From Candidatus Eiseniibacteriota bacterium (GTDB lineage: Bacteria; Eisenbacteria; RBG-16-71-46; SZUA-252), in NCBI GenBank assembly GCA_963740415.1, contig CAVUEC010000003.1:116588-180587 (forward strand): DNA of 64,000 bases, in the 5' to 3' direction. The notes under the pieces were generated by a model that was not told where the DNA came from, searched no databases, and saw nothing but the letters and a program-made list of their open reading frames with translations. This document shows positions 1,173 to 40,855 of the stretch, in pieces. Both the position numbers and the translations under genes were made by a program. Position 1 is the first letter of the stretch. Every line of letters starts with the position of its first letter.

Positions 1173-4488
<3,316 letters not shown>

Positions 4489-4533
4489 AAGTCATGCTAC
4501 CAACCACGTCCCGGTGCGTCAAGTCACGGTGTG

Positions 4534-4662
4534 GGGCCGCGGGGGGCAGCGGGGTGTGATGGCCCCCTCGCTCTGTGAGGCGTCGGCCCGACGCAAAAGA
4601 AGAAGCCGCGTCGGGCCTCCAATCGCTCAGGGGCCATCACACCCCGCTGCCCCCCGCGGCCC
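4534..4662. repeat. Large nested palindromic element: 33-bp perfect inverted repeat (4534-4566 / 4630-4662) around a 63-nt spacer that carries its own internal palindrome (~4580-4620)
   Basis: Left arm gggccgcggggggcagcggggtgtgatggcccc is the exact reverse complement of the right arm ggggccatcacaccccgctgccccccgcggccc. The element fills the intergenic space between the kdsB start and the stop of the 4696 gene. Confidence 0.6.
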
Positions 4663-4695
4663 TACGGTCGTGGCTCTAGACACCGCGCGAAGGTT

Positions 4696-5475
4696 CTATT
4701 CATCGCCGTCCTCCAGCGTCTCCCTCGGAAAGGCGCGTTGCAGCACAGCGCCAGTGGCCCTCAGTTTCACGACCTTGCCAGAGAAACCCCACTTGCGCTT
4801 CAGCCCTGGGATCGCACGTGTGGCGTCGTCCTGAACGCAATAGATCCCGCTCATGAGCCACACCTTTCGATCCTTGGTGAGCTCCGGAGGCAGCATGAAA
4901 AGTCTGGCCCTTCTCCACTCGGCAAATTCGTTCTCGAAGGTAACGTCCACCACCACAGTCGAGTCCCGCTCGGTGTCGTTGTCTCCGGGCACCGTGATCG
5001 CGACCGGAAACGAATCCGCCTGGGAGCCCTTGGGGAACGAAGTCAACAGGACGGAATAGATCTCAGCGATCGAATCCGACCGGCTGCCGGCCGCGAGGAC
5101 CCGAAGGGATTCAGCGAGGGCGGAGTTACCTCTCGACGCATAGAAATGCAGTTCCTGCCTTCGAGAATCGAAAAACACGGATGCCTCCGACCCAACGTAC
5201 CGTGCCGCTAACTGAGGGCGCACGTCCAGTTCCCGCTTGCATGTGATTGCCGTGGCAAAGCAGTACGCCAACCTGTCCCACATGCGCGAGAATTCGACAT
5301 CAAGCTCGGCCATTCCTAGGCTGTCTTCGGTTTCGGCAACGGGCTCGGTATCGTAGGCAAAGATCTCGAGACCCTTCGACCGAATGGTGAGCCCAGCCGA
5401 AGAGGATGCAGTGGCGGGGGCCGTCGTAAGGACAAGCACCGCGCCCGCTACGAGCAGCGTGGCGAGAAGCCTCAC
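4696..5475 (-). CDS. Hypothetical secreted protein (signal peptide VRLLATLLVAGAVLVLTTAPATA), lower GC than neighbours
   Basis: GTG start overlapping the TGA of the upstream TonB-C lipoprotein gene (GTGA). Clear signal peptide and no recognised domain. Local GC is visibly lower (~57-58%) than flanking genes. Confidence 0.5.
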   Translation of the reverse strand: MRLLATLLVAGAVLVLTTAPATASSSAGLTIRSKGLEIFAYDTEPVAETEDSLGMAELDVEFSRMWDRLAYCFATAITCKRELDVRPQLAARYVGSEASVFFDSRRQELHFYASRGNSALAESLRVLAAGSRSDSIAEIYSVLLTSFPKGSQADSFPVAITVPGDNDTERDSTVVVDVTFENEFAEWRRARLFMLPPELTKDRKVWLMSGIYCVQDDATRAIPGLKRKWGFSGKVVKLRATGAVLQRAFPRETLEDGDE

Positions 5476-5915
5476 AACTTGAACTCGACCGGGATGTCCA
5501 TCCAGGCGCCGACGGGGTAGCCATTGTGCGTGGCGGGCTTGAACTCGTACTGCTTGACGGCGTCGATCGCGGGCGGCGTGAGCGCGGAGACGCCGCGGAC
5601 GACGCGGATCCAGCAGAGGCGGCCCATGGGATCGATGAAGACGCGGAGAAGCACGGTCCCCTGCACGCCTGCCTTCTTGCTCTGCTCGGGATATTGCGGT
5701 GGGACCTGGGTGGCGATGATCGGGGCGATGTCGTAGGAGGTCGAATCCGGAGGCGTCATCGTGGAGACGCAACCTGGGGTTGGCGGCGGAACGTTCCGCG
5801 ACAACTCCTCGGGATCCGCGACGGTCGACTTCGGCGGCGTCACGTCGGCGTGGGCGCAGCCCATCACCGCGAGGAGACACACTGCGAGGAGCTTCACCTG
5901 AATCTCCACTGGCAC
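5472..5915 (-). CDS. TonB C-terminal domain lipoprotein (energy transducer TonB family)
   Basis: Lipoprotein signal MPVEIQVKLLAVCLLAVMGC, a Pro-rich linker, and a C-terminal TonB_C-like block PQYPEQSKKAGVQGTVLLRVFIDPMGRL...YEFKP. Confidence 0.6.
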   Translation of the reverse strand: MPVEIQVKLLAVCLLAVMGCAHADVTPPKSTVADPEELSRNVPPPTPGCVSTMTPPDSTSYDIAPIIATQVPPQYPEQSKKAGVQGTVLLRVFIDPMGRLCWIRVVRGVSALTPPAIDAVKQYEFKPATHNGYPVGAWMDIPVEFKL

Positions 5916-5929
5916 TCCGCCGTCTTCCA

Positions 5930-6040
5930 GCCCCGGGGACTCAACCGGAGGGACCCTCCGAGCCCGCGCGGCAGATGGTGCCGTCCCGCCCCGGCAGCGC
6001 CGCGGGCGAGTCGGCGTCCCGGAGGTTGAGTCCCCGGGGC
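5930..6040. repeat. Nested palindromic element: 17-bp perfect inverted repeat (5930-5946 / 6024-6040) with a 77-nt spacer containing a small internal hairpin (cggaggg-a-ccctccg)
   Basis: gccccggggactcaacc versus ggttgagtccccggggc. Sits between the mdh stop and the TonB-C lipoprotein start. Same architecture as the 4534-4662 element. Confidence 0.5.
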
Positions 6041-6083
6041 CAATACCGCGTAGCGCTAGTCCAATTACGGTTCCACTGCGTTA

Positions 6084-7022
6084 CTACCGCGCCGCCGGCT
6101 CCAACGCGAGATCGGCGATGCCCTTCTTGACGTCCTCCGCCGACTTCGCGAGCGCCGCCTTCTCGTCCGCGGACAGCTCCAGCTCCACGATCTTCTCCAC
6201 CCCGCGCGAGCCCAGGATCGCGGGCACGCCCAGGTAGAGATCGCGAAGGCCGTACTCGCCGTTCAGGCACGCGGCCACCGGCAGGAGGCGCTTCTTGTCG
6301 CGAAGGATGGACTCGGCCATCTGGACCGCCGACGACGCGGGCGCGTAGAACGCGCTCCCCGTCTGGAGCAGCTTCACGATCTCGGCGCCGCCGTCGCGGG
6401 TTCGCTGGACGATCTCCGCGAGCCGCGCCGGCTTGATGAACCGGTCGACGGGGATGCCCGATACCGTGGAGTAGCTCAAGAGCGGCACCATGGTGTCGCC
6501 GTGGCCGCCGAGCACCATGGCGTGGACGTCCTCCACCGAGACCCCGATCTCCTGCGCGAGAAACGTGCGGAATCGCGAGGAATCGAGCACGCCGGCCATG
6601 CCCATGACCCGCTCGCGCGGGAAGCCGGTGATGCGGTACGTCAGGTACGCCATCACGTCCAAGGGATTCGTGACCATGATGACGTACGCCTTGGGCGCAT
6701 GGTCGCGGATCGCCTCGGCCACGCCGCGGATGATGTCCGCGTTGGCCTTGAGGAGATCCGCCCGCGACATGCCGGGCTTGCGCGGGAGACCCGCGGTCAC
6801 AATGATGAGGTCGCTGCCCTGGACGGCGCGCAGATCGCCGCTTCCCTCGACCATCGAGTCGTAGCCGCGGACCGGCCCCGCTTCGAGGAGATCGAGGGCC
6901 TTTCCCTTGGCGACGCCTTCGAGAATGTCGATGAGGACGACGTCGCCCAGCTCGGCCTCGGCGGCGTAGAGCGCCGCGGAGGCGCCGACGTTCCCGGCGC
7001 CGACGACCGCGATCTTAGGCAT
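6084..7022 (-). CDS. mdh: Malate dehydrogenase (LDH-like NAD-dependent MDH)
   Basis: [15 protein letters not shown] Rossmann motif, [15 protein letters not shown] and GGHGDTMVP motifs. 311 aa. Confidence 0.9.
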
Positions 7023-7296
7023 GGGCCGCCTCGGTCTCCCGAGTCTTGGGATCGATCGAAACCGACATCTTGCTCTTCCCGCGCCTCTTGAAGACCACGA
7101 CCCCGTCCTTCAGCGCGAAGAGGGTGTCGTCCTTGCCCCGTCCCACGTTGAGGCCGGGGGACACCGCGGTGCCGCGCTGGCGGATGATGATGTTGCCCGC
7201 CTTGACCCACTCGCCGCCGAACCGCTTGACGCCCAACCGCTGCGACGAGGAGTCGCGGCCGTTCTTGGAACTGGATACTCCTTTTTTGTGCGCCAT
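7015..7296 (-). CDS. rpmA: 50S ribosomal protein L27
   Basis: [28 protein letters not shown]... is the canonical L27 N-terminus, with a short C-terminal extension. Overlaps the mdh start by 8 bp. Confidence 0.9.
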
Positions 7297-7318
7297 TTCC
7301 GATCAGCTCCTCTTGAGA

Positions 7319-7642
7319 TTATCCGCGGATGTCCAGGATCTTCACCCGCGTCAGGGTGTCCCGGTACCCGATGCGACGGCGGTACTTCTTCCGCCGCTTA
7401 TACACTCCCACCTTGATCTTGGGGCCCCGCTCCGTGCCGAGGACCTGCACCTTAACGGAGGCGCCCTCGACGACGGGGGTCCCAATCTTGACGCCCGTGC
7501 CGTCCGCGATCAAGAGCACACGGTCGAACGTCACCTGCGTGCCCGGCTCCGCCCCCATGTGAGGAAGAACGTGCTCCTCCTCGGCGGCGACCCGGTACTG
7601 GAGGCCCATGGCCTCGATCACTGCATAGCGTGCCGATGTCAT
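7319..7642 (-). CDS. rplU: 50S ribosomal protein L21
   Basis: 107 aa, L21-like (YAVIE..G.QYRV...VLL). Located immediately upstream of rpmA. Confidence 0.88.
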
Positions 7643-9209: not shown

Positions 9210-12189
9210 TCACCTCCAGGGCGGGGTCCGACGGACCCGGATTCTCCGGGTCTACAGGCACAGGTCGCCAGAACGCCGATTCCTCGAGTGCCTCGAGGGG
9301 TGTGCAGAGTTGGCCGCCCCGCTCCACCCACATCGCCTCGCGGCGAACGAGCAGAAGCCGGGGGTCGAAATCGAACGACGGCAGGAGACTCTTGAAGAGC
9401 AGATCCGGCCGCAGGTATCCGGTAGCCTGAAGTCGCGAGGAGAGCCGGATGCCGAGGCGCTCCCCGTCCGAGGCCATTTCGATCGAAGCAACGGCGAGCC
9501 GCGCGTTCACGGTCTTCCCCTTCTGTCCGTGGCTCTGCTTGGCGACGAGCCACTCGCCCGAGACAAGGAAGGCCGCCAAGTTGCGCTCCAGCTCCTGCCG
9601 CAGCAGGTGGACGCTTTCGCCCCGCGCGAGCTGATCCATCAAGTATTGGGTGAGAAAGACCGAGTAGTCGGCGCGTCCGATGGCCGACATCAGCGAATCC
9701 ATCGTCTTGCCGAACGGGCGCCCTTCCACGATTCGAATTCCCTCGGGAAAGACCTCGTTCATCGCCGCGATCACGTCCCAGGAGCACGGCTGCGCCAGGT
9801 CCAGATCGAAGTACTCCGCGGCGCTCGTCGCGCCCAGGGAAAGCGGCGGGCCGTACGCGATCTTGGCGTGGCGGTTGAAGCCCTGCGTGTACGCGATCGG
9901 AATCTTGGCCACGCGGATCGCCCGGTCGAAGATCCGAACCAGGTCGAGGTGGGACGTGAACCGCGCGATTCCCTCTTTGACGTACGCGACCCGGTAGCGG
10001 GTGGCCTGGGGTCCCCGGGTCGTGGTCGGCCACACCCGGCGCCGGCGGCCGTAGGCGCGGGCGTCGCCGTTCGAGTCCGCGCCCGCGTTGCCGTTTCCGT
10101 TCGTTTTCGCGTCGCCGTTTCCATTCGCCTTCGCGTGGCCGTTTCCGTTCCCGTGACCGTTTCCGTTCGGTGCCGTCGCGGCCGCCGGCATTGCCTCGAC
10201 CGCCGGCGCCACTTCGGCCTTCAGCGCCTCGATCGGCTTGGCCTCCAGGTCCCGAACGCGGGACTCAATCTCCGCGGTGGTGACCTCGGGCGGGATCGAA
10301 AAGTCGAGCGTGGCCGGCGTGGCGCCCTGGCCCGGCGCGAGCTGGAGCGAAAGGTGGCGCCCTTCGCGCGCCTTGGGCGCGAAGCAGGGAGCGCCGCAGC
10401 GATAGCACGCGTGGTCGCGGCAATCGGGGGTCAGCGCGGCCGCGTAGGCCTTGCCCCGCTCCGACAACAGAAATTTCTTCACCACCGGGGTCCGGATGTG
10501 GTCCCACGGCAGCTGCTCCTCCAGATCGCGCGGCCTCAGATACACCGCCGGGTCCATGCCGATGCTGTCGAACGCGCGCATCCAGAGATCGAAATCAAAG
10601 CACTCCGACCACCCGTCGAAACGCGCTCCCATCCGCCACGCCGCCTCGAGCGCGTCCGCGGTGCGAACGTCGCCGCGCGCGAACACGCCCTCGAGAAACG
10701 CCGTCTTCGGCTCGCGCCACTTGAGGCGGACGTTGTTCATGCCGCGGAAGCCCAGCTTGAGCCGGTCGATCTTCCGCCGGAGCGTGTCCATGTCGTCCTG
10801 GAGCTCCCACTGGAACGGGGTGTGGGGCTTGGGCACGTGGGGCGAGAGCCCGACATTGAAGTGCATCCGCTTGTTGCCGCCCTTGGCCCATTCCTGCGAC
10901 TTCCGCAAGGTGTCCGCGATTCCGTCGACGTCCGCGTCGGTTTCGGTGGGGAGGCCGATCATGAAGTAGAACTTGATGCCGCCCCAGCCCTGGTCGCGCG
11001 CGAGCTTGACCGAGTACTCGAGCTCGGCCTCGTCGATTCCCTTGTTGATGACGTCGCGCATCCGCTGCGTGCCGGCCTCGGGCGCGAACGTGATGCTCCC
11101 GCGGCGGCCCTGGCCGATCTTCTCGGCCACGGAGGGCGCGAGCGTTCCGACGCGCGTGGAGGGCAGCGAAATCGAGACGCCCTGTTCGTTGGTGAACCGG
11201 TCCAATTCGTGGAGCACCACGGGAAGCTGCTTGTAATCGGTGGTGGAGAGCGACAGGAGCGACACCTCGTCCCACCCCGCGTGGACGATGCCGCACTGAA
11301 CTTCCTTCACGACCTCGTCCGCGCGCTTTTCCCGCAGCGGCCGGTTCATGTACCCCGCGAGGCAGAACCGGCAGCCGCGCGTGCAGCCTCGCATCACCTC
11401 CACGCCCAGACGGTCGTGGGTGATCTCGGTCGGGCTGATCAGCGGCTTCTCGGGGTAGTACTCGGGCAGCAGCGACGCGACGTAGCGAAAGCGCGGCTTG
11501 GCCGAGGGCGCGTCCGGCTTGGGATTTCGCGCCACGTAGCCGAACGGGTTCTTCACCTCGTCGTAGAGCGCCGGAACATAGATCCCTTCCAGGGCCCCCA
11601 TGCGCGCGAGCACCTCGGAGCGCGGCATGCGCGTCGCGCGGCGCTCCGCCATGAGATCGCAGAGCTCCTCGATCACCTCTTCCCCGTCGCCGATCACGAA
11701 CCCGTCGATGAACGGCGCCAGGGGCTCCGGATTCACCGTGCAGAGTCCGCCCGCGATCACGATCGGATCGTCTTCGCGGCGATCCTTGGTGCGAAGGGAC
11801 ATCTGCGCCAGGTCGATCATCGTGAGGACGTTCGTGAAGGACAGCTCGTATTGGAGCGAGAAGCCGATCATGTCGAACTCGCGCGCCGGAGTGCGCGATT
11901 CGAGCGAGTAGAGCGGGATCGATTCCGCCCGCATGAGCCGCTCCATGTCGCTCCACGGCGTGAAGCAAAGCTCGGCCAAGCCGTCCGGCCGGCGGTTCAC
12001 GATGTGGTAGAGGATCTTCAGCCCGAGGTACGACATCCCGATTTCGTAGAGATCCGGGAAGCAGAGAAGCACGCGGGCCTTGGCCTGCGATGGATCTTTG
12101 CGCGCCGCGTGGAGAAAGCTACCCGTGTACCGGCTCGGTTTGGTCACGAGCGGCAGGTATGCCTCGTCCAGAGATCGGAGCTTGTCCAT
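9187..12189 (-). CDS. Fused radical SAM protein: TIGR03960-like B12-binding/radical SAM domain (N-terminal) joined by an Asn/Gly-repeat linker to a TIGR03936/DUF2344-like 'radical SAM-linked' domain (C-terminal)
   Basis: N-terminal half carries the CxxxCxxC cluster (MRGCTRGCRFC) and a FxE/GLPTET-type radical SAM core. The linker reads NGNGHGNGNGHAKANGNGDAKTNGNGNAGADSNGD. The C-terminal ~350 aa (ARFTSHLDLVRIFDRAIRVAKIPIAYTQGFN...) is DUF2344-like. Start taken at the Met of MDKLRSLDEAYLPL (12189). Overlaps the rng start by 23 bp. Confidence 0.75.
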   Translation of the reverse strand: MDKLRSLDEAYLPLVTKPSRYTGSFLHAARKDPSQAKARVLLCFPDLYEIGMSYLGLKILYHIVNRRPDGLAELCFTPWSDMERLMRAESIPLYSLESRTPAREFDMIGFSLQYELSFTNVLTMIDLAQMSLRTKDRREDDPIVIAGGLCTVNPEPLAPFIDGFVIGDGEEVIEELCDLMAERRATRMPRSEVLARMGALEGIYVPALYDEVKNPFGYVARNPKPDAPSAKPRFRYVASLLPEYYPEKPLISPTEITHDRLGVEVMRGCTRGCRFCLAGYMNRPLREKRADEVVKEVQCGIVHAGWDEVSLLSLSTTDYKQLPVVLHELDRFTNEQGVSISLPSTRVGTLAPSVAEKIGQGRRGSITFAPEAGTQRMRDVINKGIDEAELEYSVKLARDQGWGGIKFYFMIGLPTETDADVDGIADTLRKSQEWAKGGNKRMHFNVGLSPHVPKPHTPFQWELQDDMDTLRRKIDRLKLGFRGMNNVRLKWREPKTAFLEGVFARGDVRTADALEAAWRMGARFDGWSECFDFDLWMRAFDSIGMDPAVYLRPRDLEEQLPWDHIRTPVVKKFLLSERGKAYAAALTPDCRDHACYRCGAPCFAPKAREGRHLSLQLAPGQGATPATLDFSIPPEVTTAEIESRVRDLEAKPIEALKAEVAPAVEAMPAAATAPNGNGHGNGNGHAKANGNGDAKTNGNGNAGADSNGDARAYGRRRRVWPTTTRGPQATRYRVAYVKEGIARFTSHLDLVRIFDRAIRVAKIPIAYTQGFNRHAKIAYGPPLSLGATSAAEYFDLDLAQPCSWDVIAAMNEVFPEGIRIVEGRPFGKTMDSLMSAIGRADYSVFLTQYLMDQLARGESVHLLRQELERNLAAFLVSGEWLVAKQSHGQKGKTVNARLAVASIEMASDGERLGIRLSSRLQATGYLRPDLLFKSLLPSFDFDPRLLLVRREAMWVERGGQLCTPLEALEESAFWRPVPVDPENPGPSDPALEVNAPRNNN
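10060..10190. repeat. Imperfect ~18-bp tandem DNA repeats (gccgtttccgttcgc-like) encoding the NG-rich linker of the radical SAM fusion
   Basis: Plus-strand string ...gccgtttccgttcgttttcgcgtcgccgtttccattcgccttcgcgtggccgtttccgttcccgtgaccgtttccgttc... is visible by eye. Confidence 0.5.
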
Positions 12190-33782: not shown

Positions 33783-33820
33783 GAAAAAATGGGCCGCCCG
33801 GCGGAGTCGCCGGACGGCCC
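33783..33820 (-). terminator. Rho-independent terminator downstream of the 33868 beta-barrel gene
   Basis: On the minus strand, a 13-bp GC-rich stem (gggccgtccggcg/cgccgggcggccc, one mismatch) with a 4-nt loop, followed immediately by AUUUUUUCC. Confidence 0.5.
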
Positions 33821-40629: not shown

Positions 40630-40659
40630 TTGACGCTCGTGCGTTTGCAATGCTAGACT
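40630..40659 (+). promoter_or_regulatory. Putative promoter for the tRNA-Gln/tRNA-Glu pair (TTGACG-18-TAGACT)
   Basis: ttgacgctcgtgcgtttgcaatgctagact ends 11 nt before the tRNA-Gln 5' end. Confidence 0.3.
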
Positions 40660-40670
40660 CCGCAGCCCTT

Positions 40671-40744
40671 TGGGGGATCGTCCAGTGGTAGGACACGTGG
40701 CTCTGGACCACGGTACAGGGGTTCGAATCCTCTTCCCCCAGCCA
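40671..40744 (+). tRNA. tRNA-Gln (anticodon CUG), CCA encoded
   Basis: Hand-folded cloverleaf. The acceptor stem UGGGGGA/UCCCCCA is like E. coli tRNA-Gln. D-stem GUCC/GGAC, anticodon stem CGUGG/CCACG with loop CUCUGGA, T-arm AGGGG-UUCGAAU-CCUCU, discriminator G, then CCA. Confidence 0.85.
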
Positions 40745-40780
40745 ACAAACCAGCGTGCCACCACATAAAGCCGGCGGCGT

Positions 40781-40855
40781 GGCGCTATCGTCTAGGGGTC
40801 AGGACGGGTGGTTCTCAGCCATCAAACCGGGGTTCGAATCCCCGTAGCGCTACCA
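40781..40855 (+). tRNA. tRNA-Glu (anticodon CUC), CCA encoded
   Basis: Hand-folded. Acceptor stem GGCGCUA/UAGCGCU, D-arm UCGUCUAGGGGUCAGGAC like E. coli tRNA-Glu, anticodon loop UUCUCAG, T-arm CGGGG-UUCGAAU-CCCCG, discriminator A, then CCA. Confidence 0.85.

Follow-up and report, generated by a model that had tools for sequence, protein, structure and literature searches.

A long intergenic hairpin of REPIN/ERIC-like architecture upstream of kdsB in a Candidatus Eisenbacteria sub-lineage

The window, that is, the whole 64-kb stretch of DNA that was analysed, belongs to an uncultured soil bacterium, has Candidatus Eisenbacteria MAGs as its closest named genomes, and is 99.6% identical to contig_9347 of ENA ERZ25039492 (L001). 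The palindromic element under study (E1; 4531..4665, read on the minus strand) is flanked by genes that are all encoded on the minus strand and are co-directional. In the direction of these genes, mdh (malate/lactate dehydrogenase; 6084..7022) is followed by a second palindrome (E2; 5930..6040), a gene for a lipoprotein with a TonB_C domain (5472..5915; PF03544, E = 2.1e-16), a gene for a hypothetical secreted protein of 259 aa without Pfam match (4696..5475), E1 itself, and kdsB (CMP-KDO synthetase; 3685..4488; PF02348, E = 1.7e-54), 3′ of which lie pyrG and then kdsA, kdsD, lptC, lptB, and rpoN. The GTG start of the hypothetical gene overlaps the stop codon of the TonB_C gene, and the two are predicted to be translationally coupled. 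The comparison set consisted of ten related loci, labelled among L002, L003, and L083-L091, in addition to the near-identical assembly L001. Between the window (5600-5660) and L001 (10905-10963), paired compensating 1-nt indels were observed inside the TonB_C gene, which may represent a brief frame shift or a homopolymer error of long-read sequencing.

The hypothetical protein evolves fast, with 49% identity in L086, where TonB_C reaches 88% and mdh 98% (neighbours 87-98%), and 36-40% in L002 and L084, where mdh is 94-95% identical. A search of 5.8 billion proteins returned one other homologue only, and no relatives were found in the JGI metagenomes. The gene has a GC content of about 0.59 versus 0.67 for the window. 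An earlier note, made from the letters of this DNA, had described it as a lower-GC accessory gene; the lower GC content was borne out, and the accessory character was not, the gene being conserved at this locus across the clade.

The interval between mdh and kdsB varies among the relatives. Both the tonB_C and the hypothetical gene are found there in the window, L086, L084, and L002, tonB_C alone in L085 and L091, the hypothetical gene alone in L003 and, together with a tonB_C remnant, in L089, and neither gene in L088. Since the hypothetical gene is already present in the outgroup L003, these differences are read as losses and not as cassette insertions. On the same grounds, together with the decayed tonB_C of L089, the idea of a two-gene cassette inserted between palindromes was rejected. 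In L088 (427-600), mdh is directly followed by kdsB, with one minimal hairpin in between, GCCCCGGAGATTGATCCCCGGGG, composed of arm ends of the E2 type; a deletion between the two elements, with loss of both genes, could account for this arrangement.

The promoter of kdsB is placed at 4494..4522 on the minus strand and consists of TTGACG and TAGCAT separated by 17 bp, with a TG upstream of the –10 hexamer (TTGG precedes it); as sequence it reads GCTTGACG-N-TTGGTAGCAT-N5-GTG. It was found in all 11 Eisenbacteria loci, in the presence or absence of E1 (promoter and start region at window 4486-4522 (-), L002 9968-10003, L003 3005-3041, and upstream of kdsB in L083-L091). Hexamers and spacing were invariant across the six loci of alignment A1, and L087-L091 carry TTGAC(G/C)-17-TAGCAT. 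Its occurrence in every related locus led to its being taken as the real kdsB promoter, and its retention with or without E1 indicates that kdsB is a separate transcription unit, which would benefit from insulation. The GTG start of kdsB follows the –10 hexamer by 5 nt, a spacing preserved in the 11 loci, and this proximity suggests that the kdsB mRNA is leaderless or, should translation actually begin at a codon further downstream, that it has a conserved 5′ leader.

The intergenic gap that holds E1 spans 207 nt (4489-4695), of which E1 fills about two thirds and not, as had been stated earlier, nearly the whole. The stop codon of the hypothetical gene is separated from the E1 arm by 33 nt, and the 3′ arm of E1 from the –35 hexamer by 11 nt, so that E1 is placed as a 3′-UTR or intergenic element of the upstream gene pair, outside the kdsB leader. 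Moreover, the sole promoter-like site lies 3′ of E1 and is directed away from the element, which likewise leaves E1 out of that leader.

E1 is built on a 33-nt arm, GGGCCGCGGGGGGCAGCGGGGTGTGATGGCCCC, at 4534-4566 (+), which is repeated as its exact reverse complement at 4630-4662, 63 nt away, as originally reported. On the sense strand of the flanking genes, 4630..4662 (-) is the 5′ arm, preceded by GTAG and homologous to L086 1820-1854, and 4534..4566 (-) is the 3′ arm, homologous to L083 1-44 and to the 3′ half of L087. The arm has no third site in the 64-kb window when up to 3 mismatches are allowed, and none is expected by chance. The inverted repeat runs on imperfectly into 51-nt arms (4531-4581 and 4615-4665, 84% complementary), so that the element measures from 129 bp (perfect arms) to 135 bp (4531-4665). 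The palindrome noticed earlier within the spacer was recovered at 4585..4617 (-), where GGCCCGACGC (4585-4594) and GCGTCGGGCC (4608-4617) form a 10-bp stem closing a 13-nt apical loop, AAAAGAAGAAGCC, that is pyrimidine-rich on the sense strand (GGCUUCUUCUUUU). The arm sequences of the palindromes are GGGCCGCGGGGGGCAGCGGGGTGTGATGGCCCC and GCCCCGGGGNNTCARCCGGAGGG.

The fold is exceptionally stable on both strands. The RNA of 4525-4672 was predicted to fold at -126 kcal/mol (z = -11.9) on the plus strand and at -123.3 kcal/mol (z = -13.9) on the minus strand, and none of 200 shuffles folded as well. When the whole window was folded in sliding 130-nt segments (mean -50.9, sd 8.5), E1 was the top outlier at -107.9 and E2 the second at -85.6, the remainder behaving as a normal tail, which indicates that the window holds only two exceptional hairpins and not many. 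On either strand E1 folds as a single long hairpin (about 53 bp) whose interior is branched and whose apical loop holds the sole U-rich run. Its sense and antisense folds are practically equal (-119.2 versus -119.8 kcal/mol), and the RNA strand is therefore not marked as the selected one. The count of G-U pairs was also tried as a strand indicator and dropped as undecisive, being equal on both strands for E1 and slightly favouring the sense strand for E2 in two of three genomes. When folding of the nascent transcript was modelled, a GCCGCG/CGCGGC closing stem appeared just before the U/C-rich centre; any role of this stem would be speculation.

Homologous pieces of E1 were found at the same site in three relatives, so that the element is not a singular palindrome devoid of structural conservation, which the earlier note had named as an outcome that would refute it. 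The L083 contig (kdsB 87% identical) starts inside E1 and carries a homologous 3′ arm, GAGCGACGGGGCTATCAACCCCTCCGGCTGAACCCCGGGCCCC, that no shuffle of 1000 aligned as well. Similarly, the L086 contig (TonB_C 88%) ends within E1, 44 nt past the stop codon of the hypothetical gene, with a homologous 5′ part (0/1000 shuffles), and the L087 contig (kdsB 80%) starts in the apical loop. All three short-read contigs that reach E1 (one NCBI MAG contig and two Logan contigs) thus break inside it, at L083 1-45, L086 1780-1854, and L087 1-30, which indicates that such palindromes fragment the assemblies and MAGs of this group. Conversely, the sister genomes L002 and L084, together with L089, have the same genes and promoter with 20-60 nt in place of E1, and the element is therefore dispensable. 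The kdsB tree, in which the window and L083 are sister to ((L002, L084), L087), fits equally well an E1 older than the whole group with one loss, or two gains; the shared site and sequence of the homologues favour inheritance with loss.

Between relatives the arms of E1 are 65-78% identical, compared with 60-74% at 4-fold sites, which corresponds to an approximately neutral rate, and their complementarity is kept. The L087 arm, for example, is about 65% identical to that of the window, where the 5′ arm has changed from GG to TT the 3′ arm shows the matching change from CC to AA, and both arms carry a 4-nt indel (CGGA/TCCG). At 20 of 20 positions, the outer 5′ arm in L086 is complementary to the 3′ arm of L083, the two halves in this covariation analysis coming from two different assemblies. 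The arms of quasi-palindromes can stay or become complementary through template-switch correction, without selection. The first 28 nt of L087, which cover the central and apical region, are identical to the centre of the window element at 24 positions, versus 60% at the 4-fold degenerate sites of kdsB; on this alignment, the apical loop region accordingly appears more conserved than silent sites.

E2, the second element pointed out earlier, is a 111-nt hairpin (5930..6040, minus strand) located 44 nt past the mdh stop and 15 nt before the start codon of the TonB_C gene, with arms (5930-5954 and 6016-6040) that are 88% complementary. It is kept after mdh in L086 (353-471) and L002 (8551-8640), the outer stem nearly unchanged and the interior variable, and 6 of the 33 consensus pairs show compensatory changes in the three sequences. 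In L002, E2 is followed by UUUGUUUUG and, with this U-tract, has the look of a canonical intrinsic terminator. A symmetric TCC/TCC internal mismatch is conserved in E2. The arm motifs ACTCAAC and GTTGAGT of E2, which enclose an unpaired spacer, match the attC core consensus RYYYAAC/GTTRRRY, probably by coincidence, no integrase being near.

Direct similarity between the E1 and E2 copies of the window was not significant, 958 of 1000 shuffles scoring as well. The kinship of the two elements was instead supported by the L086/L083 version of E1, whose outer arms (GCCCCGGGGTTCAGCCGGAGGG) match the E2 arms at 27 of 31 positions, with one shuffle in 1000 as good; GGGTGAATCCCCGGGGCC is retained at the E1 position in L085. 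With E1 arms of the E2 type in these relatives, E1 and E2, which are 1.3 kb apart, look like diverged paralogues, and judged by these alignments E1 is probably a paralogue of E2.

Outside these two loci, the searches for copies gave no matches. Fuzzy matching of three arm types with up to 5 errors over about 154 kb of Eisenbacteria DNA (the 64-kb window and about 90 kb from relatives) revealed no further copy of E1 or E2, and a covariance model built from E2 and run over the same DNA matched E1 and E2 positions only, the window E1 itself being unmatched. An exact 22-mer of the E1 arm had no match in the JGI metagenomes, and blastn of E1 against plasmids and phages returned none. A candidate copy on a viral contig (L082) was dismissed as a chance occurrence, consisting of one single, non-palindromic 20-mer match. 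For the 154 kb searched, a high-copy REP-like family with about one copy per 10 kb is unlikely, and a low-copy family may exist. No mobile-element, transposase, integrase, or recombinase gene was found within 10 kb of E1, and no transposase in the gene table of L001.

The immediate flanks of E1 offer weak signs of mobility. A candidate direct repeat, ACGGT(C)GTG, brackets the element on the plus strand, with a left copy ACGGTGTG at 4526..4533 and a right copy ACGGTCGTG at 4664..4672; its 8 matches and 1 gap had an empirical p of about 0.018 in a post hoc calculation, and it is absent from L086 and L083. In addition, the arms are preceded by the tetranucleotides GTAG (sense strand) and GTGG (other strand), where L086 has TTAGAG and ATGTC. 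A GTAG or GTGG before the arms resembles the REP units of the REP/RAYT literature. Of the idea that E1 is a REP- or MITE-like mobile palindrome, advanced at the outset, the architecture is borne out and the mobility remains putative, given that no other copy was found in the roughly 154 kb, the JGI metagenomes, plasmids, or phages and that the direct repeat is only suggestive.

E1 does not have the form of a canonical intrinsic terminator. Its stem of 33-53 bp is, as noted at first sight, far longer than that of a terminator, and no U-tract follows it on either strand, CACACCGUGAC being what comes after the stem. The one structure flagged inside E1 by a terminator scanner was a weak inner hairpin of 7 bp (4620..4601), at the rate expected by chance. 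Elsewhere in the window, at 33791-33820 (-), there is an intrinsic terminator made of a 13-bp stem, GGGCCGTCCGGCG-ACTC-CGCCGGGCGGCCC, followed by ATTTTTT with six Ts; this canonical terminator (33820..33791) indicates that the organism does use hairpin-plus-U terminators.

Comparison with Rfam at the gathering threshold over the whole window gave nothing for E1 or E2, and two tRNAs elsewhere. In a permissive scan of 3500-7500, E1 matched only sub-threshold models of microRNA-precursor hairpins (24-38 bits versus thresholds of 61-90), and E2 had no match. At 40630-40855 (+), genes for tRNA-Gln(CTG) and tRNA-Glu(CTC) lie directly behind a promoter-like site, TTGACG-18-TAGACT. A 99-nt tRNA-Gly called by ARAGORN at 9994-10092 (+), inside a radical-SAM coding region and without Rfam support, is probably a false positive. 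The reading of E1 as an integron attC site was rejected, since its arms are devoid of GTT or AAC and of extrahelical bases and no integrase is encoded within 10 kb, and with it the earlier proposal of a recombination site lost its footing; the genes next to E1 are housekeeping genes.

Taken as a whole, E1 is a genuine, inherited, lineage-restricted intergenic hairpin of one Candidatus Eisenbacteria sub-lineage, with a REPIN/ERIC-like architecture. Of the natures once proposed for it, that of a structured RNA, a hairpin in a transcribed 3′ UTR, became the best-supported reading, with transcription, termination, and mRNA stabilisation all being things that we infer. It is tentatively suggested, as a plausible account falling somewhat short of an even balance of belief, that this hairpin serves to insulate the promoter of kdsB and to stabilise the mRNA of the genes upstream. 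Its position points strongly to a role at the RNA level. E1 would lie in the 3′ UTR of the tonB_C-hypothetical gene pair, directly upstream of the separately promoted kdsB-pyrG-kdsA cluster. A transcript reading through from the upstream genes would fold into the hairpin of about 53 bp with its perfect 33-bp outer stem, which could block 3′-to-5′ exonucleases and so stabilise the upstream mRNA. The same hairpin might hinder or end read-through, possibly helped by the U/C-rich centre, by Rho, or by RNase III cleavage (RNase III would, by inference, accept the perfect 33-bp RNA duplex as a substrate), and initiation at the conserved promoter of kdsB, 11 nt further on, would be independent. The position of E1, the co-directional genes, the conserved promoter, the arms kept complementary, and the constrained centre were counted in favour of this insulating and stabilising role, together with E2 at the equivalent spot after mdh and its terminator-like form in L002; the missing U-tract, the canonical terminators used elsewhere, the strand-equal folds, and the relatives without E1 were counted against it. 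REP, ERIC, and Correia elements are known to act as 3′ hairpins of the kind proposed here for E1.

The main alternative, unlikely but compatible with an insulating and stabilising hairpin, is that E1 and E2 are selfish, non-autonomous mobile palindromes of the MITE or REPIN type, E1 having inserted upstream of kdsB, with any effect on transcription being incidental. Terminal inverted repeats on an element of 129-135 bp that forms one long hairpin recall ERIC and Correia; the GTAG or GTGG before the arms, the direct repeat ACGGT(C)GTG (p ~0.018), and the empty sites of L002, L084, and L089 point the same way, as do the near-identity of the L086/L083 arms of E1 to those of E2 (27/31), which suggests a repeat family, and the perfect 33/33 arms, which suggest a recent event. 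However, the 154 kb of related DNA, the JGI metagenomes, and the plasmid and phage sequences yielded no further copy, no transposase lies within 10 kb, every homologue occupies the same site, neither GTAG nor the direct repeat is kept in L086/L083, and the kdsB tree accommodates inheritance with one loss as well as two gains. More doubtful still is the wider proposal that E1 and E2 are the visible members of an undescribed, lineage-specific REPIN-like family with the arm motif GCCCCGGGG-NN-TCARCC-GGAGGG, which would be mobilised by an enzyme not yet known or would bring about the gain and loss of the fast-evolving module of surface-protein genes (tonB_C and hypothetical) that separates mdh from kdsB, the conserved pyrimidine-rich apical loop being a candidate protein-binding RNA motif.

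The remaining explanations were considered improbable in varying degrees. An action of E1 as DNA, namely as a cruciform, a protein-binding site, or a recombination boundary of the mdh-kdsB interval, would agree with a symmetry equal on both strands, with the variable gene content of that interval and the one minimal hairpin of E2-type arm ends in L088, and with the attC-like core and conserved TCC/TCC mismatch of E2; it was judged improbable, because the arms of E1 itself have neither a GTT or AAC core nor extrahelical bases, no integrase or recombinase is nearby, an element of 135 bp is far longer than any operator, and the hypothetical gene in L003 makes gene decay and deletion a better explanation of the variation than cassette insertion. 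That E1 encodes a small RNA of its own, or acts as a cis-regulatory leader for kdsB, was held to be very improbable: it has a very stable fold and a conserved apical loop, but no Rfam family exceeds its threshold, and in L002 and L084 kdsB and its promoter are retained in the absence of E1. Hardly any credence was given to an assembly artefact or a chance palindrome, for although long-read assemblies can create foldbacks, and the E1 of L001 has one C fewer in a homopolymer run of one arm, two assemblies with 99.6% identity both contain the element, three independent short-read assemblies carry homologous halves of it, and zero such palindromes are expected by chance.

To our knowledge, nothing is known of gene-expression signals in the uncultured phylum Eisenbacteria. 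The locus described here yields a clearly conserved promoter of the sigma-70 type and a probably leaderless kdsB message, provides an example of a long 3′-UTR palindrome kept over about 20% protein divergence, and gives evidence for two paralogous palindromes. In practical terms, palindromes of this sort break MAG assemblies in the group. As it stands, E1 is an ordinary kind of bacterial intergenic element; should the genome prove to hold many copies, they would form the first repeat family described for the phylum.

In comparison with known systems, E1 shares with intrinsic terminators a GC-rich hairpin lying directly 3′ of a stop codon and ahead of the next promoter, and differs from them by its stem of 33-53 bp (versus 5-15 bp), its branched interior, and the lack of a U-tract. 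Likewise, attC sites are imperfect palindromes of 57-141 nt placed after an ORF, but E1 has neither their core motifs nor their extrahelical bases, no integrase is near, and the genes it flanks belong to the ancestral state of the locus. ERIC (~127 bp) and Correia elements (104-157 bp) are co-transcribed 3′ elements that affect mRNA stability (PMC3184786). E1 resembles these MITEs in size, in its terminal inverted repeats and single long hairpin, in its location at a gene 3′ end, and in the empty sites of relatives (PMC3184786), and by analogy it is probably co-transcribed with the upstream gene. Unlike them, it has no sequence similarity to any known MITE, no copy beyond the E1 and E2 positions was found in 154 kb, with homologues all at one conserved site, and its candidate target-site duplication is only suggestive (p about 0.02).

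REPINs, which are inverted doublets of REP sequences (Pseudomonas and E. coli REP/BIME), are likewise composed of two inverted GC-rich units (in E1, 33 nt long and 63 nt apart) that form one hairpin, and E1 is similarly intergenic, 3′ of a gene in a co-directional cluster; the GT(A/G)G just outside each arm of E1 is a possible further likeness. REP and REPIN elements number tens to hundreds of copies and are associated with a RAYT (Y1) transposase, whereas E1 and E2 are two related loci in about 154 kb; moreover, the arms of E1 are longer than typical REP units and its GTAG is not kept in L086. REP325 of E. coli has a dual role, terminating transcription in part and also stabilising the mRNA upstream of it (bioRxiv 10.64898/2026.03.23.713779), and, by analogy, the effect to be expected of E1 would be the same as that of REP325 (10.64898/2026.03.23.713779).
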